This document shows, one piece after another, positions 3,696 to 31,251 of a DNA stretch of 34,458 nucleotides (position 1 is the stretch's first letter; every line of letters begins with the position of its first letter). A program made the position numbers and the translations under genes. Source of the stretch: a virus (Duplodnaviria > Caudoviricetes); IMG/VR virus record IMGVR_UViG_3300031965_000101, positions 1-34,458 of that record, one strand, 5' to 3'. Under the pieces are notes generated by a model, which was given only the letters and a program-made list of their open reading frames with translations, did no database searches and was not told where the DNA came from.

Positions 3696-3919
3696 GGGGA
3701 GAGAGATTCGTCCTTTGCCTCTTTGGTCATAATCCAATATTATTTTTGGATAAACCCATGTGTCCGCTATGTGATACCGTCCAGCGGAACCTGATGTTGC
3801 AAGACGAAGTGCAGGCACTGTCTGAGGCTCTTGATAAAGCGAAGCAAGAGATTGACGACGCGCGGAAAATAATCGAAGGGCGGGAAGATCAGCTCCCGCC
3901 AAAGGAATTAATCTTATGA
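3689..3919 (+). CDS. Hypothetical protein (CxxC plus coiled coil)
   Basis: Likely start at ATG 3689, overlapping the upstream stop. CLFGH...CPLC followed by a heptad region. Confidence 0.55.
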   Translation: MVGGERFVLCLFGHNPILFLDKPMCPLCDTVQRNLMLQDEVQALSEALDKAKQEIDDARKIIEGREDQLPPKELIL

Positions 3920-4110
3920 GGCTAAAAGCTATTGCGGTGTTCATTTCTATTGTGCTGATTGTCGTTTGCAATGTCTTTATCAGCATGATGTTTGCAACAT
4001 TTCCAAAAAATGTCGAATCCTATGGAGAGAGAAACGGCGAATGGACAGCGACGGAGAAACGACAAATTATCGAATTACTGGAACGCATAGAAGAAAATAC
4101 ACGAGACTGA
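3916..4110 (+). CDS. Small membrane-anchored protein
   Basis: N-terminal hydrophobic helix (AIAVFISIVLIVVCNVFISMMFA). ATGA overlap and AAGGA SD. Confidence 0.6.
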   Translation: MRLKAIAVFISIVLIVVCNVFISMMFATFPKNVESYGERNGEWTATEKRQIIELLERIEENTRD

Positions 4111-4120
4111 AAGGAATTAT

Positions 4121-4324
4121 ATGCCTGAAAATAAAAGAGCATTCGCGCTAACACTCTCAATGTCGGAGAGGGACAATCCAATCTGGCGGGTCGGAAAGAC
4201 ATTATCAGACAAGGCCGGGATGAGAATGAAAGGGAAAAATTACCATGCTGTGCTTGATGCGGCGGAAATGGAACTTTACCGCCAGATAGAAAAATGCGCG
4301 AAAAAAGACAAGGCCGCAGAATAA
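4121..4324 (+). CDS. Hypothetical protein
   Basis: AAGGA SD; 67 aa. Confidence 0.55.
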   Translation: MPENKRAFALTLSMSERDNPIWRVGKTLSDKAGMRMKGKNYHAVLDAAEMELYRQIEKCAKKDKAAE

Positions 4325-4338
4325 AAGACGTACCGACA

Positions 4339-4476
4339 ATGATTCGGAATTTATCCGGAGCGGCGTGTGCAAAATGCGGCATGGTGTTTTTGCCGACAGA
4401 TGAAATCATCGTTACGCAACTTGCCAGCATATCAAACAAATGGACAGCCACGTACCGACACGAAAGGTGCGGTTGA
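4339..4476 (+). CDS. Small Zn-binding-like protein
   Basis: MIRNLSGAACAKCG...HERC (CxxC...HxxC). Start position uncertain. Confidence 0.45.
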   Translation: MIRNLSGAACAKCGMVFLPTDEIIVTQLASISNKWTATYRHERCG

Positions 4477-4485
4477 GTTATCTCA

Positions 4486-4622
4486 TGTCATACGGCAGCG
4501 TGCTGATTGCGGGATTGTTCATAGGTTTTGTTTTTAGGGGCGCGTGGGATAGGAGAAAACCCACCCGCGTTGAACTGAAAAATTGCGCGGCGGCGCTTTA
4601 TCGTTGGGAAAAATCAGAATGA
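4486..4622 (+). CDS. Small membrane protein
   Basis: MSYGSVLIAGLFIGFVFRGAW hydrophobic segment. Stop overlaps the next ATG. Start uncertain. Confidence 0.4.
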
Positions 4623-4831
4623 AGGCGCGAGCGGTCAGTGAAAATCAAAGCAGAACAGGAATCAAACATTATAAATGTCTTTGTTGTTTTGAGTTAGTAC
4701 GCCTGCCGAAATTTGGAGAATCGTTTGAATGCGGATGTTCTCAAAAAGTGTGCGAATATACAAAAATAATTACCTGTCGCGATCACTGTTCGTGCGAATT
4801 CCATTTGAATTATGAAAGGATAAAAAAATGA
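4619..4831 (+). CDS. Small Cys-rich protein
   Basis: ATGA overlaps at both ends; multiple CxC/CxxC motifs. Confidence 0.5.
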   Translation: MKARAVSENQSRTGIKHYKCLCCFELVRLPKFGESFECGCSQKVCEYTKIITCRDHCSCEFHLNYERIKK

Positions 4832-5058
4832 GCGATCCAAACCTACCAGAAGGCGTGACGCATAGAGATATCGACAGAATCGGAGAGCCATTACCGTTAA
4901 CCGAGGAGCCGGAAGATGTGATTTATGGTAGGGACGGGGATAAAATATCGTGTGTTCGTGGGGATTTTTTTGACCTACAAAGCTGGCCTTGTGGATTTGG
5001 AAATACTGAAGAAGAAGCTCTTGAAGATTTAATTAGGCAGGAGAACGACGACAAATGA
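4828..5058 (+). CDS. Small protein, SDPNLPEGVT family copy 2
   Basis: MSDPNLPEGVTHRDID followed by an acidic domain (DLQSWPCGFGNTEEEALEDL). AAGGA SD. Confidence 0.7.
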   Translation: MSDPNLPEGVTHRDIDRIGEPLPLTEEPEDVIYGRDGDKISCVRGDFFDLQSWPCGFGNTEEEALEDLIRQENDDK

Positions 5059-5234
5059 AAATCTGGTGCAATCATTCTGGTCCATACAAATATAGTGAAT
5101 ATATTAATTATTGCACAGGATGTGCCAGGGAAATTACCGATTGGTTTTGTATCGTCGCGTCTGATCTAAAACAGGTATGGTATGGAAAAAGGAACAAAAA
5201 ATATCGTGAAGCTGTCGGGCATAAAAATCCTTAA
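5055..5234 (+). CDS. Small Cys-containing protein (59 aa, not in ORF track)
   Basis: MKIWCNHSGPY...CTGC. ATGA overlap and AGGAG SD. Confidence 0.45.
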   Translation: MKIWCNHSGPYKYSEYINYCTGCAREITDWFCIVASDLKQVWYGKRNKKYREAVGHKNP

Positions 5235-5349
5235 ATTTCGTGGAATGATTTGCCCTCTTTGTGATTCAAAATTTATCAGCCAGGAAGATACTGGGCTGAA
5301 CAAAGTTTATCATTGCCATGCCTGTGGGCATACGTGGGTTGATAACTGA
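5182..5349 (+). CDS. Small Zn-ribbon protein (55 aa, not in ORF track)
   Basis: ...ICPLCDS...YHCHACGHTW is a classical zinc ribbon. Start uncertain. Confidence 0.5.
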   Translation: MEKGTKNIVKLSGIKILKFRGMICPLCDSKFISQEDTGLNKVYHCHACGHTWVDN

Positions 5350-5352
5350 GAA

Positions 5353-5676
5353 ATGAAAATGAGCGAAAAGATTGATCTTGACCATTTCATGCGGGCGACG
5401 TTGCCGAAAATTAAGAAATTTTATGAGGGGCGGTATTATCCTCTGTACACGACGTTGATTGTGGCTCTCGAACAATCAGTCAGGGAGCGAAACGAGATCA
5501 TTAATCCATGCGTATGGGAGGAAGATTGTGACGGAAACTGGGAAACATCGTGCGATCAAACGTTCTGCCTGGATCATGGTTGTCCATCAGAAAATGGAAT
5601 GAAATATTGCTGTTACTGCGGCAAGCCGCTTGTTGAGAAACGATATGCCGAGGAAGATGGATCGAAAGAAGAATAA
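5353..5676 (+). CDS. Hypothetical protein with C-terminal Zn-ribbon
   Basis: CVWEED...WETSC...KYCCYCGKPL, a pattern common in phage small proteins. Confidence 0.65.
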   Translation: MKMSEKIDLDHFMRATLPKIKKFYEGRYYPLYTTLIVALEQSVRERNEIINPCVWEEDCDGNWETSCDQTFCLDHGCPSENGMKYCCYCGKPLVEKRYAEEDGSKEE

Positions 5677-5688
5677 AAAGGAGATAAA

Positions 5689-5982
5689 ATGCCTAAAAAC
5701 GCAAAATACGTGATCGTGAGAACGTCCTCTGCTGGTGTGTTCGCGGGTTATTTAATGCATCGGAATGGGCAAGAGGTAACCCTGCAAAATGCCCGGCGTC
5801 TCTGGTATTGGGCGGGCTCCGCGTCCTTATCCCAACTTGCTGTCACGGGGACATCCGATCCTGCGAACTGTAAGTTTCCGGTCGCCGTCCCAGAGGTCGA
5901 GCTGTTTCAGGCAATCGAAATCCTGACCGTTACGCCTGCCGCACAAAAATCAATCGAAGGGGTACTGGTATGGAAAAAATAA
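5689..5982 (+). CDS. Conserved phage protein (DUF6948-like, small beta-barrel)
   Basis: YVIVRTSSAGVFAG...LQNARRLWYWAG..SLSQLA..G is a recognisable phage family. AAGGAG SD. Confidence 0.75.
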   Translation: MPKNAKYVIVRTSSAGVFAGYLMHRNGQEVTLQNARRLWYWAGSASLSQLAVTGTSDPANCKFPVAVPEVELFQAIEILTVTPAAQKSIEGVLVWKK

Positions 5983-6257
5983 CTTCCGGGTCCGGGTCCG
6001 GGTCCGGGGACGGGTACGGGTCCGGGTCCGGGTCCGGGTCCGGGTACGGGTCCGGGTCCGGGTCCGGGTACGGGTACGGGTCCGGGTCCGGGGACGGGTC
6101 CGGGTACGGGTACGGGGACGGGTCCGGGTACGGGTACGGGTCCGGGTACGGGTCCGGGTCCGGGTCCGGGTACGGGGACGGGTCCGGGTACGGGGACGGG
6201 TCCGGGTACGGGTCCGGGTCCGGGTACGGGTCCGGGTCCGGGTACGGGTACGGGTAA
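5970..6257 (+). CDS. Gly-X repeat protein ((S/Y/D)-G)x45
   Basis: MEKIT followed by 90 residues alternating S/Y/D with G. AAGGGG SD. Overlaps the end of the upstream gene. Confidence 0.6.
   Translation: MEKITSGSGSGSGDGYGSGSGSGSGYGSGSGSGYGYGSGSGDGSGYGYGDGSGYGYGSGYGSGSGSGYGDGSGYGDGSGYGSGSGYGSGSGYGYG
5985..6254 (+). repeat. Tandem hexanucleotide repeat (TCC/TAC/GAC)GGG x45
   Basis: Read directly from the sequence: 270 bp with only three unit variants, every Gly codon GGG. Confidence 0.95.
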
Positions 6258-8145: not shown

Positions 8146-8343
8146 ATGAGTGACGATGAACAACAACTTGAAATGATCCACGTCTTTGCGGCGTTGGTTG
8201 CCATGCACGCCGGAATTCAAAAAATGCCTATAAATCATGATACTGGGACAAAGGGAGGGAAGGAAGAATACGTGCCGGCGGCGTGGAAATGGGCGGATGT
8301 GTTTTTACAGGAGTATAAAATCAGGTACAGGGGGAAGCAATGA
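8146..8343 (+). CDS. Hypothetical phage protein
   Basis: FAALVAMHA...AAWKWADVFL resembles a common small phage family. Stop overlaps the next ATG. Confidence 0.6.
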   Translation: MSDDEQQLEMIHVFAALVAMHAGIQKMPINHDTGTKGGKEEYVPAAWKWADVFLQEYKIRYRGKQ

Positions 8344-8834
8344 AAAAAATAATTCTGTTTGCATTGTTGATTGTCGGACTGAACTGTAAACAATCAATCG
8401 CCGACGTATACGTGGAATTTGGTACGGCGATTGCTCATGCGAATGACAGACACATAGAGACCGGATCAAAGAACATCGAATTCGGTTATACGAATCCCCT
8501 GCACTGGGGACGTTTCCAAGCCGGCCTCGGCGGGTGGGAAGACCGCTCCGGCTGGCCTGGCGCGGAGGGCAGCATTTACGGTCAAACTTCGTTCGGCATC
8601 GAGCCTGACCTTGGGGAATGGTACGTCAACTATCATATCGGCCCCAGCTACATATCCACACCGGACACCATGCTCGGCAGCCGGTGGCAGATATTCCAGG
8701 AGCTCGGTCTTGGCGTGGTGGACTGGCATGGCAGACGCATCGGCATCGTCATCAAACATTGGAGCAATGGCGCATGGTGGGGACGTCGCATAAACAAAGG
8801 ACGGAACTTTCTGAATCTACGGGTGCAATTCTGA
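8340..8834 (+). CDS. PagL-like lipid A 3-O-deacylase / acyloxyacyl hydrolase family outer-membrane beta-barrel
   Basis: Signal peptide (MKKIILFALLIVG...SIA), amphipathic beta-strands, H-x-S-N motif (KHWSNGA), NxGxN motif (NKGRNF) and C-terminal Phe (BAM signal). Confidence 0.75.
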   Translation: MKKIILFALLIVGLNCKQSIADVYVEFGTAIAHANDRHIETGSKNIEFGYTNPLHWGRFQAGLGGWEDRSGWPGAEGSIYGQTSFGIEPDLGEWYVNYHIGPSYISTPDTMLGSRWQIFQELGLGVVDWHGRRIGIVIKHWSNGAWWGRRINKGRNFLNLRVQF

Positions 8835-9622: not shown

Positions 9623-9967
9623 ATGAGGATTCTATTGTTGCTGTTTGCGGTTGTTTCAATGTTTGGATGTGTAAAGCACACGCCTGGCTCCTTCACACAG
9701 GAGGACATTGACAATGCGAAGAAGGAGGGCGCAATCGCCGTGGCTAAAGCTGTCGAGGACTCGCGTCTACACGCATTTCAGGTCGAAGTACTCGACCAAT
9801 ACAAGACGATTTTCGAGAGGCTGAACATGCTCGAGAAGGAGATGAAGCGTGTGTTCCGCAGGAATGAGATATGCACCTACAATGCCAATACGCGGATCAA
9901 GGAGCTTCTCAAGAATTCGAATATCCAAGACCCTGTCTCATATGAACCGAAACATCATCAAGAGTAA
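9623..9967 (+). CDS. Predicted lipoprotein with coiled coil
   Basis: MRILLLLFAVVSMFG-C lipobox-like signal; GGAGG SD. Confidence 0.65.
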   Translation: MRILLLLFAVVSMFGCVKHTPGSFTQEDIDNAKKEGAIAVAKAVEDSRLHAFQVEVLDQYKTIFERLNMLEKEMKRVFRRNEICTYNANTRIKELLKNSNIQDPVSYEPKHHQE

Positions 9968-16929: not shown

Positions 16930-18015
16930 ATGTCCAAAAAAATAGTTGAGGTGGTTGAGGCTTACGAGCGTAAGTTCAACCCGTCGGATACGGAGCGCGG
17001 GCTAAAAATCGCGCATAAAGAAATCGCAAAAAAGGTAAAAAGTCTCATCGAGGAAAAGAAAATTGAGCCGATGAAGATTGACATGAAAGAACTTTATCGA
17101 AAACTCGTCGAGGATATGGACTTGGAGGAGAATATCGTGTCCTCCGCGTTTCCGAGTATCTCCGGTGAGATTATTTCTTCTGTGATAATCGAGGGGTACC
17201 AGTCGTTTCCGAAGGATGTAGAGAAGCTCGTGCGATCTGTACCGTCGAAGTTGAAAACATCTCTTGTTGCTGGATGGACGGCGATGGGCGATTTCGGCGA
17301 CCCTGTGAAGGAAAGCGAACCCGCCGATGAGATCATCCCGCCCGATGAGAAGACACATACAGTCAAAAATCACCTATACGAGAGGATTATCAGTGTCACA
17401 AAGGAAGCGATCTTCTTCGATCAGACTGGACAGTTGCTTGATCGTGCGCGGCAGATTGGTGAGAGAGCAATGCAGAAACGACAGAAGATTATCTTTGAAA
17501 CGGTATGTGATGTGAACAGCACCTCATTGTCAAATGCAGTCCTTTATTCTACTGGCAATGCGAATCTTCTGACGACGAATCCGCTTGACACTGCTGGGTG
17601 GGAGGCGGCGGATCACCACCTTACTGGGAAGAAAGATGATAAAGGGGAGCCGATCTGGGTTTTTGGTGATATGCCAGTGCTTATCGTTGCAGCGAATCTT
17701 AAAAGTACTGCAAGGAAACTCAAGTTAAATCAATATGGCCCTCTTGGGACAGCGAATTTAGATGCGAACTTGGCACAGAATGCGTTCGATTACGTTGTCA
17801 ATCCATATCTTGCGGTTTCAAATACAAGCTGGTGGTATGGAGCATTCAACCGACAGTTCAGATGGGAAGATGTTTGGGCGTTTACGGTTATGTCACGAAA
17901 TGGTGAACAGAGTGAGGATGGGTTCAAACGTCGGATCATCAACCAGACGAAAGCGTCTTTCTATGGTGGATGCGGTGCGGCTGATACGGTCTGGGTTGTG
18001 GAATCCAACGCATAA
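16930..18015 (+). CDS. Major capsid protein (HK97 fold, Mu gpT-like)
   Basis: Size, position and AGGAGG SD. Motifs YERIISVTKEAIFFDQTG, PVLIVAANL, VVNPYL...WWYG. Confidence 0.9.
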   Translation: MSKKIVEVVEAYERKFNPSDTERGLKIAHKEIAKKVKSLIEEKKIEPMKIDMKELYRKLVEDMDLEENIVSSAFPSISGEIISSVIIEGYQSFPKDVEKLVRSVPSKLKTSLVAGWTAMGDFGDPVKESEPADEIIPPDEKTHTVKNHLYERIISVTKEAIFFDQTGQLLDRARQIGERAMQKRQKIIFETVCDVNSTSLSNAVLYSTGNANLLTTNPLDTAGWEAADHHLTGKKDDKGEPIWVFGDMPVLIVAANLKSTARKLKLNQYGPLGTANLDANLAQNAFDYVVNPYLAVSNTSWWYGAFNRQFRWEDVWAFTVMSRNGEQSEDGFKRRIINQTKASFYGGCGAADTVWVVESNA

Positions 18016-18031
18016 AAAGGGGGATGATCAT

Positions 18032-18598
18032 ATGTTGACTCAAAAAGCGAAGACACATCTTCTTCCAGGAATCCTCGCGGCGCTTGTCGCCGTGGGGCTT
18101 GCCTGGGGGGCGGCGACGAAATTCACCGACCTTGAGACCACTGGGACGATGACCGTTGGGACGACGCTTGATGTTACCGGAGCGACAACATTGACAGGCG
18201 GCTTGACGCAGGACGGGACAGCAACGTTAAATGATGACGTTACGCTTGGGAGTGCGGCGAAATTAATTCATACCGCTCCGAGCGAGTATGTCCTTCATTT
18301 TTCAAGCTCTGTCTCAATTGCCAGTTCCTATGCAGTCATAAAGTCCAGTGGTGCGGCAATTACTCTATCACCCGCGAACTCGTTGGCCATACTTTCTACA
18401 ACGACTGCGTCGGCAGGGGAAAGGTTTGTTATAAGAAATTCATCGAATGCTGTGATAACTTTTCAAGACGACGGTTCGCTTTCAACAAGTGGATTGGCTC
18501 TTGGCGCGGCAACGAGGGCTCTCGGAATTAATGATACCTTGGAACTGATATTTACGGGAACGCTTTGGGCTGAGCTTTCTTTCACGAATAACCAGTGA
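18032..18598 (+). CDS. Fibre-like protein with predicted signal peptide
   Basis: Start at ATG 18032 after AAGGGGG. h-region LLPGILAALVAVGLAWG-A. TGTMTVGTTLDVTGATTLTG beta-repeats and a C-terminal DTLELIFTGTLWAELS motif typical of fibre tips. Confidence 0.7.
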   Translation: MLTQKAKTHLLPGILAALVAVGLAWGAATKFTDLETTGTMTVGTTLDVTGATTLTGGLTQDGTATLNDDVTLGSAAKLIHTAPSEYVLHFSSSVSIASSYAVIKSSGAAITLSPANSLAILSTTTASAGERFVIRNSSNAVITFQDDGSLSTSGLALGAATRALGINDTLELIFTGTLWAELSFTNNQ

Positions 18599-18608
18599 GT
18601 CGAAAATC

Positions 18609-19034
18609 ATGAGAAGAATTCTAACCGCTTGTCTGTTCTTTTTGCTTTCTGCATCTCTGAAGGCGGCTGATACGGTCTCAATCTCAACAATGAGTCTCGG
18701 TTCCATATCGAGATTCGTTTTCTCGAACAGATCGGACGCGACCGGAGAAGCGGCTGTAAAGAAGATTGACATATCCGCAATCCCAGGGAATCCGTCAAAG
18801 GTCAGAATAACTGCAATCAAATGGGCCGTGAGCGGAATGAATGTTGATGTTCTGTTTGACCACACAACTGATGATCGTGCAATCATTTTGAATGGTAATG
18901 GAGAGATTCAAGACGCCAACATAAAAGACCCTGCATCGTCTGGTGATACGGGAGATATTCTTTTTACTACGACGGGTCACACCGCAGGCGATGGATACAC
19001 GATTGAGATAGAAGTCAGGCCGGACGGGAGTTAG
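18609..19034 (+). CDS. Putative structural beta-sandwich protein with predicted signal peptide
   Basis: MRRILTACLFFLLSASLKA-A signal; TGDILFTT.G...GDGYTIEIEV C-terminus. Confidence 0.7.
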   Translation: MRRILTACLFFLLSASLKAADTVSISTMSLGSISRFVFSNRSDATGEAAVKKIDISAIPGNPSKVRITAIKWAVSGMNVDVLFDHTTDDRAIILNGNGEIQDANIKDPASSGDTGDILFTTTGHTAGDGYTIEIEVRPDGS

Positions 19035-19038
19035 ACAC

Positions 19039-22000
19039 GTGTTGCGCCGTCTCCTTGCGGCGTCTGTGATTTGTGCGGCAGTTGTCACGGACTGCCTCTC
19101 TGGTTTTGTAATCGGAAAATTTAAGCGCGATGGCAACACGATTTATATTGATATTCGTGATGTCGAGATACGCGATCCCGCAACGTTCCGCCCACCGATA
19201 GGGATAAATCCAACATCATCTGCATGTGATGATGCTTCCGAGCATGGGCGCATCTTCATTGATACAAACGCGGTTTCTGGACAGCAATTATATGTCTGTG
19301 AGGGCGCGGCCGGGTGGATATTGCAGGGCGATGGACTCGGCGCTGGATCAGCTATAAACATTCTTGAGAATGGCTCCACCACGCTTTTGAATGCGGGTGC
19401 TATTGACTTTGATGGCGACGATTTCAATACTTCCGTTGCTGGAACGACGGTTGCAATATCCATCGCCTACTCAAGAACAGTCAGCACGCACACCGCGCAA
19501 ACTCTTTTAAATAAAACACTCGAAAGCCCAACTATCAATTCCCCATCTCTTTCTGCTGATAGCGTTGATGTGATAACAGAGATTGCCGCAGCTATCAAGA
19601 CGGGACTTGATGCCAAGCTCGTGACTGGCACGGCTGGGGCAACCGGAAATTGCGCTGAGTGGAATGCGGATGGAGACCTTGTAGATGCCGGTGATCCATG
19701 CGGGACTGGAAGCGGAGGAGGTAATGCGGTCAATATCCTTGAGGATGGAATAACAGAAATCACAGGGGCCGCTGCCATTGATGCCGGATATGGATTGACT
19801 AATGCGGTAAGTGGAAGTACCGGGACATGGAGTTATGATCCTCTCGTCCTTATTGACAGTTCAACGGTGCAAGCTCTGTATAACAAAACGTTCGGATCAT
19901 CAGTTACAGTGCGTGGAACACTAGATGCGCAGTTCGGTATCACAGCGGCAACAGGCGTATTTAGTTCAACAATCAGCGCATCCGCACTAATCCTTGACAG
20001 TTTCACGACGACTCAACTCAATAACACGACGCCAACGCAGGGGATGATAGTATATGATACAAACGAGGATGCAATCTCAATTGCAACCGCTGCCTCGCAA
20101 GGTGCGTTCTCTAAAATATTCAGCGAAAATGATAATATCCCGGTCACGAATTTGGACAGCGGGACGGGAGCGTCTGCTTCGACATTCTGGCGGGGCGATG
20201 GATCATGGGCAACGCCGGCTGCTGGTGGTGGAGGTGGTACGAGCGGACTTGATCTGTTTATCGGCGATACTGAGCAAGAGATAGACATATCTACTCTGAC
20301 TTTTAATGACGATCAGTTCCAGGCGGCGGAAGCGACGGTTTCGATGAAGACGAATGGACTCTACAATCTTAGTAGAAGCACCTGGTCTGTACATTTAGCA
20401 TCAGCAGCACAAGTACAGATTACCGGACAGGGAGATAAAACGCATTTATTAATAAAAATGCCTCAAAATCAAACGTTGTCTCCTCTTGATATTTTAAATT
20501 CCGCTGGAACGTCAATGTTCACTGTTTCTGCCAATGCCGAGGTTCTTACAACGAGTGCATCGGCTCAAATTATATGGAGAGCCGACGCTGAGTCCGGAGA
20601 AGGTCGTATAACGTCCGCTCAAGATTTGCGATTAGTCAGCGCAGTTGGGGATGATATTATTCTTGATCCAGGAGATACGACAAATACGGGTCAGGTGATA
20701 ATGGGAGGCAATGAGGCTTTTGTCGCAAGTAAATCAACAGGTACTTTTCACGCTATAACAGCATCAAGCCAAGCGACAATCGGACAGCTTCATTTGACGG
20801 CAGGCGCGGGAACGGAAGAATGCCTTCAGAGAGACGAAGCGGGGCGTGTTACCGGCACTGGTTCAGCTTGCGCGGCTGGTGGCGGGGATGGCGGCCCGAC
20901 GTTGGATTATGTTGTGAATGGATCAAGTTTCCTTGTGGATGCTGACACAGAGGCCATAACGAACACAGCGGGGTTGACCTATTCATCCACAACAAAACGG
21001 ATTTCGTGGGAACTCAACAGGTCTTCTGTAACGATGGCGGGGCCGACGATCGAGTCTTCCGAAATAACAGATGGGACGATCACGGCTGACGATCTTGGGA
21101 CGGATTCAGTAAGCGCTGATGAATTGAATGCCACCGGCGTGGAAGCCGAACTTGAAGCCGTCCTCGATGTGAACGAACTTCAGGGAGACTTGGACGCTAA
21201 CCGGATATCAGCAGGGACGCTTGATGTTGATGTTGTCGCTTCTTCTGTTGCCGTGAATACTATCGGTAATATCCAGATGCAGGATGATGCGATAACAAGT
21301 GCTGAAATGGCAGACTCAGATCATGGAGATGTGTCCTGGTCTGGGAATGTGGCGACTGTTGACAATGTGGAGGCAGCGAATGTCGCGTCCGGCTCTTTGG
21401 GGGCTAGCGTTCTTGTCTCTTCCATCGCGGCTGGTTCTGTCTATGGCGCGGGATTGAATGCTACCAATGCGCCTGGAGACAATCAAGTTCCTACGTTTGA
21501 TTCGGCGACCGGACAATTCACGTGGACTGATGACCAAACATCAGCCGGTGGGGGTGATAATCTTGGGAGCCATGTCGCCACGAAGACGATTACAGCAGAA
21601 TTCGGGATTGATGCATCTACCGGTGTGTTTTCGTCAACCGTCACGGCTTCTGCGTTTCTGACGACGGCGGCGTCCAGCCAGGAAGAAAGCCTCGTGCGAG
21701 TCTCCGATAAGAACGATTCAACGATTTGGGGACAACTCATTCAGCGTTCGACGAATTCAACGGATTTTCCGAATCTTGCCGGTCGGTTCGCCATTCAGAC
21801 TTCAACGGATAAAATTTATTTTATTATAAACGGCGGCACAAGCGCCGTATTGACGGATGAGAAAACCTTGACGGTATCATCAGCCACGATAGAATATGTG
21901 GCAGGATCGACAATCACCGTTAGAAGAATTGAATGGGCGGATGGAACTGTGCAGGTCTCAAGCCCGCCGGCGGGCGGCGGATCAGACACAAACGCTATTC

Positions 22001-22488
22001 GGGAGATCATGTTTGACGCCGCCGCCTTTCAAATCTTCGGCTCAACCGGTGCGCCATTGGAGCAGACTTCAACCACAAGCGTTGCGGGTCTCGTGCGAAG
22101 TTTCGATGACACCACACGCGAATACGTCGAGATGAAATGGCAGGTTCCAGGTGATATTGATACGTCCGGCTCCGTGACGCTAAGGACATATGTCATGGCG
22201 AAGACGGCCGCGGCCTCGAAGAACGTCCAACTTGATTTTGAGCACTACTGCGTGAACGACTCTGAGAGCTTCCAGGGTTCATATACCGCGGTGTCATCGG
22301 GCGATTTCGCCATTGATGCGACGCAAGTAGATACAACGGAAAAAACGTGGACTGAAACGGTCAGCACGCTCGGTTGGGCCGCGAATGACATGTGTTTTGG
22401 GAGATTGTCCCGCGACCCTGGCGCTACCGATGATCTCACCGGTGACATGCATTTATTCACTTTCACAATCGAGGTTCCAAGACAATGA
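19039..22488 (+). CDS. Large modular fibre/adhesin-like protein (1149 aa) with predicted signal peptide
   Basis: N-terminal RR plus hydrophobic stretch. Ser/Thr/Ala/Gly-rich modules separated by poly-Gly linkers. Fibre motifs QTLLNKTL and TFWRGDGSWATP; internal repeats. Confidence 0.75.
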   Translation: MLRRLLAASVICAAVVTDCLSGFVIGKFKRDGNTIYIDIRDVEIRDPATFRPPIGINPTSSACDDASEHGRIFIDTNAVSGQQLYVCEGAAGWILQGDGLGAGSAINILENGSTTLLNAGAIDFDGDDFNTSVAGTTVAISIAYSRTVSTHTAQTLLNKTLESPTINSPSLSADSVDVITEIAAAIKTGLDAKLVTGTAGATGNCAEWNADGDLVDAGDPCGTGSGGGNAVNILEDGITEITGAAAIDAGYGLTNAVSGSTGTWSYDPLVLIDSSTVQALYNKTFGSSVTVRGTLDAQFGITAATGVFSSTISASALILDSFTTTQLNNTTPTQGMIVYDTNEDAISIATAASQGAFSKIFSENDNIPVTNLDSGTGASASTFWRGDGSWATPAAGGGGGTSGLDLFIGDTEQEIDISTLTFNDDQFQAAEATVSMKTNGLYNLSRSTWSVHLASAAQVQITGQGDKTHLLIKMPQNQTLSPLDILNSAGTSMFTVSANAEVLTTSASAQIIWRADAESGEGRITSAQDLRLVSAVGDDIILDPGDTTNTGQVIMGGNEAFVASKSTGTFHAITASSQATIGQLHLTAGAGTEECLQRDEAGRVTGTGSACAAGGGDGGPTLDYVVNGSSFLVDADTEAITNTAGLTYSSTTKRISWELNRSSVTMAGPTIESSEITDGTITADDLGTDSVSADELNATGVEAELEAVLDVNELQGDLDANRISAGTLDVDVVASSVAVNTIGNIQMQDDAITSAEMADSDHGDVSWSGNVATVDNVEAANVASGSLGASVLVSSIAAGSVYGAGLNATNAPGDNQVPTFDSATGQFTWTDDQTSAGGGDNLGSHVATKTITAEFGIDASTGVFSSTVTASAFLTTAASSQEESLVRVSDKNDSTIWGQLIQRSTNSTDFPNLAGRFAIQTSTDKIYFIINGGTSAVLTDEKTLTVSSATIEYVAGSTITVRRIEWADGTVQVSSPPAGGGSDTNAIREIMFDAAAFQIFGSTGAPLEQTSTTSVAGLVRSFDDTTREYVEMKWQVPGDIDTSGSVTLRTYVMAKTAAASKNVQLDFEHYCVNDSESFQGSYTAVSSGDFAIDATQVDTTEKTWTETVSTLGWAANDMCFGRLSRDPGATDDLTGDMHLFTFTIEVPRQ

Positions 22489-23249
22489 AAAATATGGTTA
22501 TTTTCTTTTTATTGATTCCGTCTTTATGTTTTGGCGGAGGTAGTATGGATTTTGTTAATGCCAATACGGATTTAGTGAATATGGGGGATGTTGGTACCGC
22601 AACGAATAATATATCTGTTTGTGCTTGGATAAATGTAACCTCGACAATTTCCGGTGGACAGAACGCTGCTGTTTCTAAGATGTATGCTCTTGTCGAGCCA
22701 TTTTGGATTTTTGAGCTTGGGTATAGGTTTAATGCCGGAGCCGAAGTAGACAAAGGGTATATTACTATCGGGGGTACGAGTGGGGGATATAACGATGAGG
22801 GAAATACTTGGAGAACGACCTCAACGCCTCTTTCTCTTGGTAGGTGGTATCATCTTTGTGGTACATGGGCGACCGGAGAGATTCCGAATATTTATCTCAA
22901 TGGTGTGCTTGATAATGGATCAGCAGGAAATCCGGCGGCAAATGGCCCTCTTGAAACGTTTGCGACTAATGTTAATATAGGATTTAATGAGATATTAAAT
23001 GTTTACTCTGATATGAAAATCGCGTATGTTCATGTTTTTTCAAGAACCCTTAGCGCAAATGAAGTTACGCAGGAAATGAGATGGCCAGAATCGGTTGGCC
23101 GGAGCAGTTATTATTATATTCCACTAAGAGAAAAAAGCTCTGCATCTCAAATTTCTGATATGTCTGGCGCTGGAAATCATGGGACAAATGATGGCGCTGA
23201 TGAATCTTCCGATAGTCCGCCTGTAACTTTTCCAGGAGGCCCCCTATGA
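22485..23249 (+). CDS. LamG/concanavalin A-like jelly-roll protein with predicted signal peptide
   Basis: ISVCAWIN, GRWYHLCGTW, IYLNGVLD, VFSRTLSANEV, DMSGAGNHGT. Signal MKNMVIFFLLIPSLCFG. Confidence 0.85.
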   Translation: MKNMVIFFLLIPSLCFGGGSMDFVNANTDLVNMGDVGTATNNISVCAWINVTSTISGGQNAAVSKMYALVEPFWIFELGYRFNAGAEVDKGYITIGGTSGGYNDEGNTWRTTSTPLSLGRWYHLCGTWATGEIPNIYLNGVLDNGSAGNPAANGPLETFATNVNIGFNEILNVYSDMKIAYVHVFSRTLSANEVTQEMRWPESVGRSSYYYIPLREKSSASQISDMSGAGNHGTNDGADESSDSPPVTFPGGPL

Positions 23250-23725
23250 AGCACTTTGTGTTTTTGACTTTTCTGCTTTTTCCCGTCCTGGCTTTCGCCG
23301 GAGACGTGGTAATTTTTGATCCCGCGACCGACAGGGTGACGAACTACATCAGGAGCGCTCATACTCCTGACTTCGATAAACGATCCGATGTCGTCCTGAA
23401 CCCAGACTTATCCGCACTCTCCGGCGTTCCCATCAGATACTGGAAGCATTCAGTGGGTGCGATTGTAGAAATGTCAGCGGCGGAAAAACAAGTGGTTGAC
23501 GATGCGGAAGTTGCGGCCACAGATGCGTTGGTAAGAACAACAGCAAAGGACGCGATAGATGGATTTGAGACAAATCCAATTCTTTATAGAGCACTCATCA
23601 AGGTTCTTCTGGATGAGATTAATCTTTTGAGGGAACAACTGCTTTTGCCACCCAGAACATTGAGTCAGGCGAAAACTGCTATCAGAAATGCAATAGACGG
23701 CGGAACGATTGATGAGAAACCATAA
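23246..23725 (+). CDS. Fibre-associated/chaperone-like protein with predicted signal peptide
   Basis: MKHFVFLTFLLFPVLAFA-G signal. YWK...IVEMSAAEK followed by a helical C-terminus resembles fibre assembly proteins. Confidence 0.6.
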   Translation: MKHFVFLTFLLFPVLAFAGDVVIFDPATDRVTNYIRSAHTPDFDKRSDVVLNPDLSALSGVPIRYWKHSVGAIVEMSAAEKQVVDDAEVAATDALVRTTAKDAIDGFETNPILYRALIKVLLDEINLLREQLLLPPRTLSQAKTAIRNAIDGGTIDEKP

Positions 23726-24791
23726 ATGGATTTGTTTTCTTTTCATCCCATCTCTGAGCCTTGCGTCGCCTTCGATCACGAATGTGACGGGGACATTCTT
23801 CGGCCAGGCTACGGATCAAATCGTTGTGACGATCACAGGCGTGGATTTTTCCACGAAGAGTCCCGCCGCGCCGGTGGTTTTTGCGGATTTCGAGGATGGG
23901 ACGGTGAATCCGACTTCTCTGGGAATAATAACGGCGTGGAACGCCAACGATGGGCCGCTCATTTCTACGACGACGAAGCAGCTTATCAATTCCAGTCACA
24001 GTATCTTAGGCACGTGGGTGAGTCCGTCAACAAGTTTCTCTTTTCAGTTGAAACATATTTCCACCTTCAGCTTCATCTACTCATTCGGACGGCGATACCA
24101 TGAAGCCGACCTTACGGGCAATCAGAAGGTTTGGCGATTGCATCGAGCGGATGGCGGAGGGACATGGGTTGTATCAAGCTCAGGGGATGGAGTCTTTCTT
24201 AATGAGGATTGTAGCGGGAATCAACTTAATCAATTTCAGGATATCCAATCAAAAATTGATGAAGGGAACTTTTACACTGAGGAACATATTTGGTCGCATG
24301 GATCGTATACAGGAGCAGATTGGATCGTCGCCAATGGTTACTGGAACTATCTCGTTGATGGATTTTCAGTTCAAAAAAGTACTTCTGGGGACAATTGCGA
24401 TTCGCAGTCTACTGAAATTCGTGTATGGGATAATTTCTCGAATGTCGGCGTGGTGGATGGCGCACATCTCTGGATGGACGATCTTTATGTGGATTCCACC
24501 TGGTCGCGTGTTTTCATTTCTACAGTTTCAACTTGGACTGAAAATGGTACGGGCGGCAGGCGGGAGATTCAAATCCCAAATGCTTGGAGTGATACGGAAG
24601 TGCAGGTCTATTTTCGGCAGGGGGAAGCCCAAGCGGATGAAACGTGGTACATGTTCGTATGCGATCACACAAATTCCTGCAACTCTAACGGCTTCGAGAT
24701 CACAATTGGTGAATCTATATTTGAAACTGAGACAGACAGCTTTGTCGGGCAGGGGGAGTCCGTGATAAAAGGAACAACGGAAATTAGATGA
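23712..24791 (+). CDS. Secreted beta-rich (lectin/lyase-like) protein
   Basis: MRNHKWICFLFIPSLSLA-S signal. Ig/TIG-like ends (PSITNVTG; EIQIPNAWSDTEV) around a Trp-rich core (WMDDLYVD). Confidence 0.65.
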   Translation: MRNHKWICFLFIPSLSLASPSITNVTGTFFGQATDQIVVTITGVDFSTKSPAAPVVFADFEDGTVNPTSLGIITAWNANDGPLISTTTKQLINSSHSILGTWVSPSTSFSFQLKHISTFSFIYSFGRRYHEADLTGNQKVWRLHRADGGGTWVVSSSGDGVFLNEDCSGNQLNQFQDIQSKIDEGNFYTEEHIWSHGSYTGADWIVANGYWNYLVDGFSVQKSTSGDNCDSQSTEIRVWDNFSNVGVVDGAHLWMDDLYVDSTWSRVFISTVSTWTENGTGGRREIQIPNAWSDTEVQVYFRQGEAQADETWYMFVCDHTNSCNSNGFEITIGESIFETETDSFVGQGESVIKGTTEIR

Positions 24792-24961
24792 AGATTTTTG
24801 TGATAACGATCAAGCCTATTCTTATTTCCTGTGTTTTTTACTTCATTGTTCTTTCCGCGATGATCATATTCGGCCAGAAGATCACCGCAAATGAAAAGGC
24901 GCATATGGAACAGATCATGAAACGGAACACGATCGGCGTGACGGCGACGGTGACGGAATGA
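24788..24961 (+). CDS. Small membrane protein (57 aa, not in ORF track)
   Basis: MKIFVITIKPILISCVFYFIVLSAMIIFGQK.... ATGA overlap with the upstream gene. Confidence 0.45.
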   Translation: MKIFVITIKPILISCVFYFIVLSAMIIFGQKITANEKAHMEQIMKRNTIGVTATVTE

Positions 24962-25004
24962 TTATGAAAAACAATCAACGCTCATTCATGGATACGGTTT
25001 TTTA

Positions 25005-25295
25005 ATGATAGAAAATAAAAATAGAAGGAAACATGATAATGGCATTTACAAATATATCCGATTATTCAGCATCGTATTTATTGTATTTTCAACAGTTTTC
25101 GGATGGGGAATGGTGTATAAAGGGTTCCTCTTTACGCAAGAGAAGGTTTCGCGGATAGAAAATCGGCTTGACGGATACGAGAATATTTCAAGAAAGTACG
25201 TCATTTTGGTCGAAAAGATAGATCAGAACATGCTGAATTTTTCGGAGAGAATGAGACGAATTGAAAATTTAATTGATAAACGTTACCAGAGATAA
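25005..25295 (+). CDS. Single-TM coiled-coil membrane protein (holin/XhlA-like, tentative)
   Basis: TM segment LFSIVFIVFSTVFGWGMVY followed by heptad repeats. Confidence 0.5.
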   Translation: MIENKNRRKHDNGIYKYIRLFSIVFIVFSTVFGWGMVYKGFLFTQEKVSRIENRLDGYENISRKYVILVEKIDQNMLNFSERMRRIENLIDKRYQR

Positions 25296-25307: not shown

Positions 25308-25904
25308 ATGGCGACATGGAAATTCGATATTGCAACTCATAAGGGGTTGACTCTATACGTTCACGTCAAGGATGCTGACGGAAAGACGAATAACGGGAAC
25401 GTATATGAGACGTTTAATATATCGAATTGGGCTGATTATTCAAAGGCGATGACGGAGACGGATTTAGGAGCGGCCTCTCCTGAGATAGGATTGTATAGTT
25501 TTACCGGAGGTTCTGCCTATAGTACGCCCGCATTCGCGTTTGTTTTCGAGCAAGAGGGTGTTTCTCCCGCATCTTCAGATACACAGGTCGGCCTTGCGAC
25601 AATTACTGAAGTTACGGCTGTCACGGCGCCAACGTCTGAACCCTATACGGAAACGAATCTCAAGATACAGCTCACCAGTATTCAGACCGCGATAAATAAT
25701 GCACTCGTGAGTCCGAGGCCGGATTGGAGCGTGGGGCAGGTGAGAATGTCTCAGGGGAGCTATCTCAAAATGTTATTCGATCAACAGGCGGAGATCATCA
25801 AACAACTGAAGTCAATCCCGACGGAAGATATTTCTACTCACCAGGATGCTATTGGGCCATTCGGAGAGGATGTCACAGATTATGTCGGCGAGGAGGCTTT
25901 TTAA
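25308..25904 (+). CDS. Putative head completion/adaptor protein with N-terminal beta domain
   Basis: C-terminal helix-hairpin-helix (IQTAINNAL..PDWSVGQVRMS...LKML) resembles gpW-like adaptors. Located just before the head-closure gene. Confidence 0.55.
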   Translation: MATWKFDIATHKGLTLYVHVKDADGKTNNGNVYETFNISNWADYSKAMTETDLGAASPEIGLYSFTGGSAYSTPAFAFVFEQEGVSPASSDTQVGLATITEVTAVTAPTSEPYTETNLKIQLTSIQTAINNALVSPRPDWSVGQVRMSQGSYLKMLFDQQAEIIKQLKSIPTEDISTHQDAIGPFGEDVTDYVGEEAF

Positions 25905-27914: not shown

Positions 27915-28985
27915 ATGCCGAATCTTGAGGAACAAGTAAATGAATTGAAAGATGCCGGATATCCGGTGAGGAAGGGTATCCGGCAATTTTCTGAGGAATC
28001 GGGGAGAGATGTAGCGGATAATATCTGGCTTCACCGATGGGCCAAACACGCCGCGCAGAATTATCCCATCGTGACCCGTTCGGCGGGTGTCCGGTTCTTA
28101 GAAAACGCGGCGAAGGGCGTCCCCGCGTTCGTCATCGGGATCGGCCCGAGCCTTGACAATAATATCGCAAAGCTCAAGGGACTCGATGGGCGCGCATTAA
28201 TATTTGCCACAGACGCGGCGTACAGACCGTTGCTTGCAAATGGTATAATTCCCGATCTCGTAATGACGTATGACTGCCAGAGTGCCCAAAAAAACCTGTT
28301 TGATCATTCTTATTGCGAAGACCCACCGGCTCTACTATGCAACTCATGTTCACACCCCGACACGATATCAGCTTGGGAAGGGCCCATTCTGTTTTATAAC
28401 CAGTGGCATACAAAGGATGTTTTCATTGAATTCCTTCTGCCGTATATCTTCCCACTTATAGGACAAATCCCGTCATCCGGCACGGTCGGAAATATGCTCG
28501 TCAATGTTGCGTATATCTTGGGATGCAATCCCATCTTTACCGTTGGGATGGACTTATGCTATGCGAAACATGGGGAGGGGTGGCGCTACCGATGCCAGGA
28601 TTATAAGTATGGGAAGATTGATGACAGCGGGCAAGGCGGGTGGATAAAGAATGATAATTTGATCCTGTATGACAATGATGACAGGGTAAGAAGTTCATTC
28701 GACGAGGAAATAAACGGGGAGAAATTCCGCGTTGATGCAGAGCTCAAGACATACCGGGAAGCGTTGATCGGGCTTTGTCGTGGATTGGGGATCAAGATCA
28801 TAGATTGCAGTGTGGATGGGATACTCCGAATGTATTTCAGAACGATTTCCGTTGAACAAGCGGCATTGGAATTTTGTACATATAAAATGATGGAGGGACG
28901 AACGGTTGTTCCGCACTTGTCAAAGATAATCCCAGACGGACGGAAAATTTGGGAGGAACAAAGGAAGAACGGGTGGGTATGCTGA
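27915..28985 (+). CDS. Maf/DUF115 (MptE-like) family protein, putative glycosyltransferase
   Basis: AFVIGIGPSLDNNI, ATDAAYRPLLANGIIPDLVMTYD, SGTVGNM, AYILGCNPIFTVGMDLC, IIDCS - the conserved motif series of motility-associated-factor proteins. Confidence 0.85.
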   Translation: MPNLEEQVNELKDAGYPVRKGIRQFSEESGRDVADNIWLHRWAKHAAQNYPIVTRSAGVRFLENAAKGVPAFVIGIGPSLDNNIAKLKGLDGRALIFATDAAYRPLLANGIIPDLVMTYDCQSAQKNLFDHSYCEDPPALLCNSCSHPDTISAWEGPILFYNQWHTKDVFIEFLLPYIFPLIGQIPSSGTVGNMLVNVAYILGCNPIFTVGMDLCYAKHGEGWRYRCQDYKYGKIDDSGQGGWIKNDNLILYDNDDRVRSSFDEEINGEKFRVDAELKTYREALIGLCRGLGIKIIDCSVDGILRMYFRTISVEQAALEFCTYKMMEGRTVVPHLSKIIPDGRKIWEEQRKNGWVC

Positions 28986-29977
28986 TATTCCACGTCACGA
29001 CGACAGACCCCGCCGGCGCGGCGTATAATCTCGTCCAGTCTGTCAATCAGAACACAAAGCACCGTGCGAGGCTTCTGACTACTGTTCCGAATGCTTATGG
29101 TCATCCGACGGATATTGCCGAAATACCAGACTATGGAGATGAGGTTGAAGAATTGCTTCTGAGTGCAGACGTGATTCACTTCCATAAGATCAATGAAGAC
29201 TTCGAGATCGCGTTCAACTCAAAGCGCCCTCGAAGATGGAGAGTCAAGGATTTCCTTACTGTCAATGGAAAGAAAAAGCGGGTAGTGTATCATGTGCACG
29301 GCCATCCTTACGAGCGCGCGAACGTTCAGGAGAACGGGGAACTGTACAAGGAAAGAAATGCAGTCGTGCTCTGCTCGACACCGGACTTGCAAGAAATGTA
29401 TTCGCCGTACTGTAATGCGCGATTTTTCCCAAATTGCGTCCCCGTATTCGACTCAAAATATCTTCCGCGTGAGACGGATAAAATGGCCCAGGACGTAAAC
29501 GGAGAAAAGCGGTGGATCGTATCCCACACGGTCAGCGATAGGAATCTGAAGAATTGCGATATGATTGAGAAGGCCGTCAATTATGTCGCGCGGACACAGC
29601 CTGTCAATCTCATGACGATCGAGAACACGCCGTTCAAGATGGCGATGGTATGGAAGCGAATCGCTCATGTCGTATTCGATCATATGCAGGGATACTACGG
29701 GTTATCGTCTCTTGAGGGGATGGCGATGGGGAAGCCGGTCATTGCGGGATTGAATGATCATACGATAAAGAGCATTATGGAATTTTTCGATATCGGCGAC
29801 ATCATGCCGTGGCAGAGGCCGCGCGACCAGTCTGGTTTGAACGATTGCCTGATGGATTTGATAGCGAACCCCGAATTGCGCCGAGTCATGGGCGCGCGCG
29901 GGAGGGAATTCATGGAAGGCGTTTGGAATGAAAAATTCATAGGGGGGAAGCTCGGTGAGCTCTACGAATCTCTATAG
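28979..29977 (+). CDS. GT-B fold glycosyltransferase (GT4-like)
   Basis: Start at ATG 28979. ADVIHFH, YHVHG, and GYYGLSSLEGMAMGKPVI...LIANPELRRVMGARGREF. Confidence 0.85.
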   Translation: MLIFHVTTTDPAGAAYNLVQSVNQNTKHRARLLTTVPNAYGHPTDIAEIPDYGDEVEELLLSADVIHFHKINEDFEIAFNSKRPRRWRVKDFLTVNGKKKRVVYHVHGHPYERANVQENGELYKERNAVVLCSTPDLQEMYSPYCNARFFPNCVPVFDSKYLPRETDKMAQDVNGEKRWIVSHTVSDRNLKNCDMIEKAVNYVARTQPVNLMTIENTPFKMAMVWKRIAHVVFDHMQGYYGLSSLEGMAMGKPVIAGLNDHTIKSIMEFFDIGDIMPWQRPRDQSGLNDCLMDLIANPELRRVMGARGREFMEGVWNEKFIGGKLGELYESL

Positions 29978-30728
29978 AAAAAATCCGCCGGATGGGACGG
30001 TGGGAATCGTCATCCCGATGAGAGACAACCTACACTATTTCAAGCTGGCGTTCCATTCCGTGCTTTCATTCACCGATGTCCCGTACATGCTCACGATCGT
30101 GGACAACATGAGCACGTTCCAGACCCGTCTTTATCTTCGGAGCCTGATGAGGAACCACCAAATAAATGTCATGCAATATCAGGAGGACTTCAATTACGGG
30201 GCCGAGGTGAACATTGCAATGCGCCAGATGTTTGAGAACCCAGATGTGAAATTTGGCCTCTGCCTCAACTCGGATACTGTGGTAGAAAAGGGATGGCTCA
30301 AGAATTTATCTGAGAATTTCAGGCAACATCCGAAGCTCGGAGTGGTCGGCCCGATATCGAATATCGCCATACCACCGCAACAAATCGGACGCTCATCCGA
30401 TCTATTTGATACGGAGTACGTTTCTGGGTTCTGCATGATGTTCAGACGGGAGGTATTCGAGGCGCTTGACGGATTCGATGAACGCTATGTCGGGGGATGC
30501 TATGAAGATCAGGATTTTTGCATTCGGGCGATTGAAAAAGGATGGCATGTCAGTATAGATAGCTCTGTTTACATCCATCATTTCTGGCGAGTGACAAGAA
30601 ACCTGGACCCGCTTGCAAATGAGAATGTGCAGAAAAATAGGGAGAGATTCCTTCAAAAATTCCAAAATATAAATTTGGAAAAAATTCATACTTTCCCTGC
30701 AAGATTAGCAAAGGCTTTGAGGGAATAA
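29955..30728 (+). CDS. GT-A fold glycosyltransferase (GT2)
   Basis: VGIVIPM, TIVDNMS, LNSDTVV, VSGFCMMFRREVF..LDGFDE.Y..G.YEDQDFC. Confidence 0.9.
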   Translation: MSSTNLYRKNPPDGTVGIVIPMRDNLHYFKLAFHSVLSFTDVPYMLTIVDNMSTFQTRLYLRSLMRNHQINVMQYQEDFNYGAEVNIAMRQMFENPDVKFGLCLNSDTVVEKGWLKNLSENFRQHPKLGVVGPISNIAIPPQQIGRSSDLFDTEYVSGFCMMFRREVFEALDGFDERYVGGCYEDQDFCIRAIEKGWHVSIDSSVYIHHFWRVTRNLDPLANENVQKNRERFLQKFQNINLEKIHTFPARLAKALRE

Positions 30729-30729
30729 A

Positions 30730-31251
30730 TTGACACTCGTCGAAGAGCGCTATAATATCGCGTTGAAATTGCGGAGCGATATTAAGGAGCATATCCCTTT
30801 TTTATCTGCCTTTGCCAGAGGGAATATTCTTGAATTTGGTGTCCGTGACGGAATTTCCACGGCTGCATTTCTATATGGGATCGAACGTCAAGGGGGAATC
30901 CTTTGGAGCGTTGATAAGAATCCGGAGTGCGGAAAATTGTTTTCCGGCCATCCGCTTTGGAGATTCATACAGGCAGACTCATGCGATGTGACGCGAATCA
31001 TTGATTTGGGCCTTCCAGGGAAACTCGATATCGTTTTTTTGGACACGGAGCACGATTATGAGCATGTCTCAAACGAGTTGACTTCCTGGCATACGATGGT
31101 TGATATGGATGGAATGATATTGGTACATGACGTAATAGAATATGGGCAGGCGGCGGGACGAGCATGTGAAGATTTTTCAAAATGTTATGGATGGAATTAC
31201 GTGATACGACCCGGGTCGAATGGCCTGGGAATATTAAATAGGAGGATGTAA
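30730..31251 (+). CDS. Class I SAM-dependent methyltransferase (Methyltransf_24-like)
   Basis: ILEFGVRDGIST, LWSVD, DIVFLDTEHDYE, GMILVHD. Confidence 0.85.
   Translation: MTLVEERYNIALKLRSDIKEHIPFLSAFARGNILEFGVRDGISTAAFLYGIERQGGILWSVDKNPECGKLFSGHPLWRFIQADSCDVTRIIDLGLPGKLDIVFLDTEHDYEHVSNELTSWHTMVDMDGMILVHDVIEYGQAAGRACEDFSKCYGWNYVIRPGSNGLGILNRRM

Follow-up and report, generated by a model that had tools for sequence, protein, structure and literature searches.

By the accepted view, tailed phages complete their particles inside the cytoplasm, ahead of lysis. Export of phage proteins through host Sec or YidC is familiar from other settings, namely pIII and pVIII of the Ff phages, SAR endolysins, spanins and exclusion lipoproteins; the coat proteins of Ff phages remain in the membrane and are assembled as the particle is extruded, with no lysis, and the lysis and exclusion proteins are not parts of the virion. 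Late addition of outer parts is physically plausible, since lambda gpD, T4 Soc and Hoc, and P22 tailspikes bind finished particles in vitro. A full-text literature search, with subscription papers mostly outside its coverage, returned no description of exported virion parts of tailed phages. The subject here is a block of six consecutive genes, G1 to G6, at positions 18032-24791 of a Caudoviricetes record from IMG/VR (IMGVR_UViG_3300031965_000101; the window hereafter denotes the whole stretch analysed, that is, the complete record of 34,458 bases). Each gene opens with a predicted Sec leader of the signal peptidase I (SPI) type. The products are probably head-decoration parts that join the capsid at lysis, and we infer their export, cleavage, incorporation and timing from the comparisons below.

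The closest described parallel for the leaders comes from the Cellulophaga baltica phages phi18:3 and phi10:1, whose gp085-gp087 (KC821620) and gp091-gp094 (KC821618), respectively, carry classical leaders together with a GenBank note as structural protein by tandem mass spectrometry (MS/MS) proteomics. Across the two phages, 7 of 24 translated virion-annotated proteins are leader-bearing and the other 17 are not flagged. As in the window, consecutive genes with Sec-type leaders here belong to tailed phages whose core virion proteins have none. Unlike G1-G6, the Cellulophaga proteins have Gln at +1, as in Bacteroidota, and the phi10:1 set lies at the tail end instead of after the major capsid protein (MCP) gene. 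No paper on the export of these proteins was found. The closest parallel for the parts themselves is the turret of HFTV1, a base plus a glycan-binding head on an HK97 capsid with N-terminal docking: according to the main text of its description, the gp30 base hexamer puts its stalk into an MCP hexamer, and the N-termini of the gp31 head trimer contact the base (bioRxiv 10.1101/2024.12.09.627619). In contrast to G2, which is known here from its sequence and a model, HFTV1 is an archaeal virus, and the strings “signal” and “secret” are absent from that main text.

All six open reading frames (ORFs) are present and adjoin one another after the MCP gene, and every leader quoted in the initial annotation was recovered by a rule-based scan. 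The rule, implemented in our own script, asks for an uncharged 8-residue window near the start, with a mean hydropathy of 2.2 or more, that is preceded by net positive charge and followed by a small-x-small site. All six leaders show the Sec/SPI pattern of a basic n-region, a hydrophobic h-region of 7-15 residues and small residues at -3 and -1, the departures from the ideal being Leu at -3 in G2 and Asp in the c-region of G3. By eye, none has a signal peptidase II lipobox (no Cys at the predicted +1) or the twin-arginine translocation (Tat) motif S/T-R-R-x-F-L-K, RR occurring in G2 and G3 without the Tat consensus. The G4 and G6 leaders look alike by eye, and BLAST gave no alignment between them. 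Nine of the 56 called genes were flagged (G1-G6, a PagL-like gene, a lipoprotein gene and one small membrane ORF), and a run of six among the nine has p=1.3e-4 by shuffling. The absence of leaders from the flanking capsid, neck and tail proteins, also claimed at the outset, holds: none of the terminase, portal, protease, capsid, neck, tail-tube, tape-measure and glycosyltransferase genes of the window is flagged, and only 1 of 173 distinct homologues of 17 core genes is flagged across the clade defined below.

ATGA overlaps join G3 to G4 and G4 to G5. Shine-Dalgarno (SD) scores are weak at codon 1 of G1, G2 and G6, with no better start past the leader. The initial annotation named true starts downstream of the leaders as a finding that would overturn it; G1, G2, G3 and G6 offer no suitably placed internal start from which the conserved N-terminus would be preserved, and for G4 a start at codon 21 is possible. 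We take the leaders to be real, and they are very likely functional.

In relatives of the window, the leader tracks the gene slot and not the protein family. The clade comprises 29 loci, the window included, with an MCP at least 39% identical; left out were L098, L099, L207, L211, L212 and L214, which end in or at the MCP, L213, a duplicate of L096, and L196, the window itself. Across these loci the first gene after the MCP encodes 21 distinct proteins, and all 21 are flagged for a leader, although five (in L095, L096, L208, L209 and L210) are, by eye, not G1 homologues. Leaders were likewise seen by eye in 15 of 16 other G1 database matches, and in 15/15 distinct G1 locus copies a conserved A-x-T-x-F-T motif follows a small-x-small site. 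The G2 leader is found in only three clade members; elsewhere mostly G1 alone is flagged and the next accessory genes are leaderless. The window is the extreme case within the clade. Farther out, at 49 MCP loci of mostly 23-29% identity, the seven genes that follow the MCP are flagged only sporadically. A tail-region gene bears a leader in L095 (19786-20223) and L096 (10301-10780), and its leaderless homologue in L089 (19128) starts at the predicted cut, which suggests that export reaches tail appendages in part of the clade. Because the leader follows the slot and not the family, and because the Cellulophaga phages have leader-bearing structural proteins detected by MS, the export of a set of appendage proteins, as the initial annotation proposed, is strongly supported by comparison.

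Two loci deserve separate mention. In L209 (798-3522), all three genes directly after the MCP are non-homologous and leader-bearing, a parallel exported module in which two genes have no Pfam match. The distant phage L277 (G275:C3) codes on its reverse strand (3834-5432) a fibre-like gene of 532 amino acids (aa) with a hydrophobic leader, after leaderless post-MCP genes; in this phage, sugar-nucleotide genes are interleaved with terminase and portal.

The initial annotation also asked whether homologues keep or lack the leaders, and both kinds exist. In 43 of 48 G2 database homologues, the protein starts with Met (in one case Val) followed by x-D/N, exactly at the predicted mature start ADTV, and the remaining five have leaders of their own. 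The same holds on a smaller scale for G5, where four of five homologues start M-x-[DNS]-[VI]-[VIL]-[IV]-[FVY]-D at the predicted cut and the fifth has its own leader. For G2, G5 and the tail-region gene, the predicted cut would thus yield the N-terminus with which leaderless homologues begin. Among 124 fetched locus copies, near-duplicates counted, the G2 leader occurs in three (the window, L005 and L089). Most leaderless loci have an in-frame stop a few codons upstream of G2, so no leader is hidden there. A G2 profile search of 1.84 billion representatives gave 1187 at E<=0.001, with true leaders in 3 of the best 150; two entries were discarded, P0070 (2764 aa, with 25 weak stretches) because it is a repeat artefact and P0076 because its flag is false. 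A rescan of viral contigs with leader-bearing G2 returned nearly the same loci, and a scan of the genome collection with G2 gave 31 loci, every one leaderless.

The leaders have diverged more than the proteins that they precede: 11 G2 leaders share a mean identity of 34%, compared with 50% for the mature parts, and all 11 end in Ala or Ser. A single clade of leader-bearing G2s was rejected (approximately unbiased test, p=2.5e-5), with five label changes, three of them forced by starred branches. This tree (quick tree, LG+G4) had 47 rows, omitting P0092, which has a long branch, and another 55 leaderless rows; the 103-row tree was computed in the quick version only. Since one clade is rejected, the G2 leader has been gained or lost more than once, the direction of change not being separable.

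The predicted fold and the position of G2 resemble those of head parts. The G2 model (pLDDT 84, pTM 0.76) is a single jelly roll of the turret-base and cement size class (about 115-125 aa). Its top fold match is the 114-aa HFTV1 turret-base chain 8qpg_TD (Z 8.4, root-mean-square deviation 3.1, 98 residues aligned, 19% identity), and the KHP40 cement protein (7dou) scores Z 6.8. In many unrelated leaderless phages, the MCP gene is followed by one for a protein that begins (M)ANTTFSGP or similarly, and this in turn by G2, starting (M)ADAV. Pelagibacter phage HTVC008M codes two G2 paralogues, gp086 and gp087 (36% identity, E 3e-11), in its head cluster between portal and prohead protease. Tailed phages from sea and soil, HTVC008M among them, carry a leaderless family of true G2 homologues with the same head-gene position and the same mature N-terminus; unlike G2, gp086 and gp087 have no leader, and both are annotated as hypothetical. 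No sequence relatives of G2, G3 or G6 were found in the PDB.

G1 has a spike-like modular layout, with its conserved A-x-T-x-F-T start, a beta-repeat shaft and a beta-sandwich tip that is exchangeable between two alternatives. Of the trimeric fibre folds that the initial annotation suggested looking for, this layout is what the sequence shows, and a weak monomer model gives spike matches of low score, the tip matching 6o38 (Z 7.0), the Solidus depolymerase (Z 6.1), the Pa223 capsid spike (Z 4.7) and CBA120 TSP4 (Z 3.8), and the shaft or front matching the P2 spike helix (Z 3.6). PF25692 matched G1 at E 5e-4, below the cutoff. The KHP40 cement protein (7dou), the Pa223 capsid spike (9ny6) and tailspike tips (24qj, CBA120 TSP4) share folds with G2 or the G1 tip at middling Z and without sequence homology. 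These cement, spike and tailspike proteins are made and attached in the cytoplasm. A complex prediction with three mature G2 and three mature G1 chains scored 0.00, gave no verdict and is not used as evidence either way.

Among the remaining genes (coordinates are collected in the table), the initial annotation had seen phage fibres, a LamG lectin and a fibre chaperone. The lectin stands: G4 matches PF13385 at E 1.6e-15 (58 bits, cutoff 27.6) and the virion structural protein family phrog_8510 at E 2e-10, and is related to a leaderless family of about 258 aa coded after the MCP in distant phages (iE 1.2e-7). The chaperone label is unsupported: G5 has no match in Pfam, PHROG or NCBIfam, and four of its homologues are also empty in Pfam. 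On sequence and models, the parts are closer in appearance to head decoration than to tail fibres. G3, called fibre-like on its composition and repeats, matches phrog_34856 at residues 1012-1133 (E 3e-13) and has local Cys pairs at 63/87, 205/221, 595/611 and 1071/1119 (chance p=0.004); G4 has one such pair and G6 two. A link of the G3 C-terminal domain to a leaderless, stand-alone 161-aa post-MCP family of distant phages was not accepted: phmmer gave E 0.06-0.2 and hhalign a probability of 1.6, and the matches of a profile search lacked significance. Neither G5 nor the G3 C-terminus was matched in scans of viral contigs, and no G6 homologues were found in Pfam, PHROGs, PDB sequences, cultured phages or the fetched loci. 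The mature proteins show no convincing signal of glycosylation-site motifs (Thr-Asn 18, expected 12.9+-3.0; D-S/T-hydrophobic 10, expected 15.5; N-x-S/T 25, expected 23.4).

Table. Coordinates and leaders of the six genes and of neighbouring features in the window
Feature	Position	Strand	Leader	Remarks
MCP, HK97-type, module anchor	16930..18015	+	none; not flagged by the rule-based scan	PF25209 E 2.4e-16; PHROG head matches
G1, predicted head spike	18032..18598	+	18032-18109, 26 aa; predicted cut AWG/AATKF	
G2, predicted capsid decoration or spike base with a single jelly roll	18609..19034	+	18609-18665, 19 aa; predicted cut LKA/ADTV	
G3, 1149-aa Ser/Thr/Gly-rich fibre-like protein	19039..22488	+	19039-19101, GTG start; predicted cut CLS/GF	C-terminal domain
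G4, predicted LamG/concanavalin-A-like lectin	22485..23249	+	22485-22535	one Cys pair; possible internal start 22545
G5, 159-aa protein, no named family	23246..23725	+	23246-23299; predicted cut AFA/GDVVIFD	
G6, 359-aa protein	23712..24791	+	23712-23765; predicted cut SLA/SPSI	Cys pairs 167/229, 317/323
Two small ORFs (57 and 96 aa), one membrane segment each, closing the block	24788..25295 (24788-24961, 25005-25295)	+	no cleavable-leader flag	no family
PagL-like outer-membrane lipid A deacylase	8340..8834	+	Sec leader	ESM Atlas PF09411 clusters, features 0.97, TM 0.79

In the reading that we favour, the leaders would route likely outer head parts (spike, spike base, fibre and lectin) via host Sec into the periplasm. 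There, cleavage by SPI would leave the same N-terminus as Met removal leaves in leaderless relatives, judging from the comparison: A-D-T-V in G2, G-D-V-V-I-F-D in G5 and A-x-T-x-F-T in G1. By analogy with the HFTV1 turret, the released N-terminus probably serves for docking. Once in the periplasm, the mature proteins would fold and form oligomers, with disulfides in G3, G4 and G6. Heads and tails would be built in the cytoplasm as usual and would bind the periplasmic proteins during lysis or immediately after it, once the inner membrane has opened, so that, unlike in the Ff phages, an HK97 particle built in the cytoplasm would encounter mature domains that are soluble. The outcome would be a glycan-binding head coat for the first, reversible adsorption. 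The initial annotation had left the choice between addition at lysis and a surface structure in a lysogen; both are inferential, and addition at lysis is favoured because MCP-spike-G2 is a head-module order common to many leaderless phages and because G2 lies in the HTVC008M head gene cluster. As for why export might pay, disulfide folding would explain only G3, G4 and G6; the alternatives are that spikes are kept off procapsids or that the proteins are exposed to periplasmic modification.

A broader proposal, to which we incline a little less firmly, is that tailed phages have a second, compartmentalised maturation route, in which the core particle forms in the cytoplasm and Sec-exported head spikes, bases, fibres and lectins accumulate in the periplasm, to be added at lysis. 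Such a route would be switched on gene by gene, by placing a signal peptide before an unchanged docking N-terminus; it would have arisen repeatedly and become fixed clade-wide in the first post-capsid gene. The parts are of known kinds and the route is unproven; if it holds, it would be a new category for tailed phages, an assembly step so far overlooked through which host-recognition proteins gain access to periplasmic folding and modification. Many phage signal-peptide genes now filed as host-modifying morons would then be virion proteins. With its 1187 representatives, the G2 family offers an unusually clean test: it has natural leader-bearing and leaderless twins with the same mature N-terminus, and in the clade of the window spike and base would be exported either jointly or one without the other. 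For the general claim, the Cellulophaga phages provide a system that can be cultured.

Several observations weigh against incorporation of exported parts into the head. The leader calls come from our own heuristic rather than from SignalP. The top fold match of G2 is tied three ways at Z about 8, with 4ind_A and 9i0y (STIV turret, Ena2A), a level that a common jelly roll can reach; Foldseek of G2 against the PDB gave nothing at E<=0.001, and its top BFVD matches are uncharacterised phage proteins. The G1 model is weak (pTM 0.48). The link of G1 to the leaderless (M)ANTTFSGP family consists of a six-residue motif and gene position, and a profile-profile alignment of the long G1 forms with these proteins gave no match. 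Most relatives in the clade have a leader on G1 and none on G2, so the base can do without export. G1, G2 and G5 have no Cys, and the six together have 0.7% Cys compared with 0.5% in core proteins. The Cellulophaga leader proteins have no sequence similarity to G1-G6, and their MS annotation, known here from GenBank, could reflect co-purified exported protein. In a tblastn search of 50,697 phage records, the MCP, G1, G3, G4, G5 and G6 matched no cultured phage, and no clade protein has been seen in a virion.

These points leave room for proteins that are exported and never enter the virion, former decoration genes now serving in the periplasm, at the surface or in released form in receptor masking, superinfection exclusion, as decoys or as lysogen adhesins. 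The phage does code other exported, envelope-modifying proteins (the PagL-like product and a lipoprotein at 9623-9967), no virion homologue was found for G3 or G6, and signal peptides of Porphyromonas phages have been taken as host-surface modifiers or as prohead-protease sites (PMC10367356). Nevertheless, we regard this role as unlikely. The genes lie inside the late operon with no excess of promoters or terminators in the block (20, expected 17.0, and 14, expected 12.5), the post-MCP slot is kept in 21/21 cases, and the exact retention of a conserved mature N-terminus fits docking. By eye, there is no evident lipobox or C-terminal anchor, and loss of G1 from the virion would leave the whole clade with a G2 base minus its neighbour. 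Less likely again is a scheme of two forms, in which a cytoplasmic form, made from an internal start or through slow export and prohead-protease clipping, decorates the capsid, and the exported form is a by-product or has a second function. It draws on G4, where an in-frame ATG at codon 21 (22545), just past the cleavage site, has a stronger SD sequence (GGAGG) than codon 1 and makes a leaderless form possible. It also draws on the suggestion, within the same Porphyromonas phage study, that the prohead protease cuts signal-like N-termini of Nixviridae capsid proteins (PMC10367356). However, the lack of comparable starts in G1, G2, G3 and G6 speaks against it, and the leaders are alike in Sec/SPI character but share little sequence, as is more readily expected of signal peptidase substrates than of sites for a phage protease. 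Passages of two further papers (PMC5723332, PMC5335546) added nothing on mechanism.

Improbable, to our minds, is that the hydrophobic stretches, real as they are, serve as uncleaved membrane anchors, whether as an inner-membrane or vesicle tether, a lipid-layer coat of the particle or a stage for membrane-based assembly. Two uncleaved membrane ORFs do directly follow the block, but the h-regions are short, the small-residue site falls at the natural N-terminus of leaderless homologues, and the rest of the operon is that of an ordinary HK97-type head and long tail. Simple artefact, through wrong starts or chance hydrophobic N-termini, could be argued from the heuristic detection, the weak SD at three starts and one G1 homologue (P0050) whose database start is placed at an upstream GTG. 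It is largely refuted by the comparative data and very hard to sustain, given that leaders recur in independent genomes with diverged sequence, that G4 and G5 are ATGA-coupled, and that the run statistic and the core-gene control both oppose it. Export followed by addition to the capsid at lysis therefore remains the reading that we prefer.

The setting of the block is a siphovirus-type late operon in which small and large terminase, portal, MuF-like, MCP, neck, tail terminator and tape measure genes have Pfam and PHROG matches; the protease, head-tail adaptor and tail tube were assigned from position (the protease and tail tube also from the look of the sequence), not by profile. The order of terminase, portal, protease, HK97 MCP, neck, tail tube and tape measure is as expected for Caudoviricetes of this type. 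The record stops within the gene that follows the tape measure; the tail tip, as well as lysis or integrase genes if there are any, would lie beyond its ends. The block was first described as lying between the MCP and neck genes. It does start directly after the MCP; at its other end, the two small membrane ORFs and then the head-tail adaptor follow, so that G1-G6 and these two ORFs lie between MCP and adaptor. The head-tail adaptor-like gene (25308-25904) has an extra N-terminal segment of about 110 aa; relatives code only the C-terminal 88 aa, and L210 has a different fusion.

The PagL-like gene, which has no match in a Pfam hmmscan, ends in a C-terminal Phe and is a possible LPS (lipopolysaccharide) remodelling or exclusion gene; the predicted lipoprotein has an F-G-C lipobox, lies upstream of the terminase genes and belongs to no family found. 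Together, these two predicted products imply a diderm host whose envelope includes LPS, an outer membrane and a periplasm. Searching with the MCP profile through genomes from the phyla of G002 (301), G003 (401) and G004 (401) gave 1, 4 and 14 matches, respectively, all distant (E 1e-38 to 1e-69), and identified no host; seven of these 19 genomes were fetched, and none has a leader-bearing G1-G2 module.

Between the tail tube and the tail chaperone (27915-31251) lie four leaderless genes, coding for an MptE-like protein with a partial PseD (flagellin modification) match, a GT4-like and a GT2 glycosyltransferase, and a methyltransferase, which form a candidate cytoplasmic virion-glycosylation cassette. 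A similar cassette occurs in the relatives that reach that far (L004, L089, L091, L093, L095, L096, L097 and L210) and in the distant element L293. At 5689-6257, a 97-aa ORF (phrog_18306) is followed by a 95-aa ORF of Gly-Ser-Tyr-Asp repeats, and the early region (283-1843) contains exonuclease-like and Cas4-like nuclease genes.

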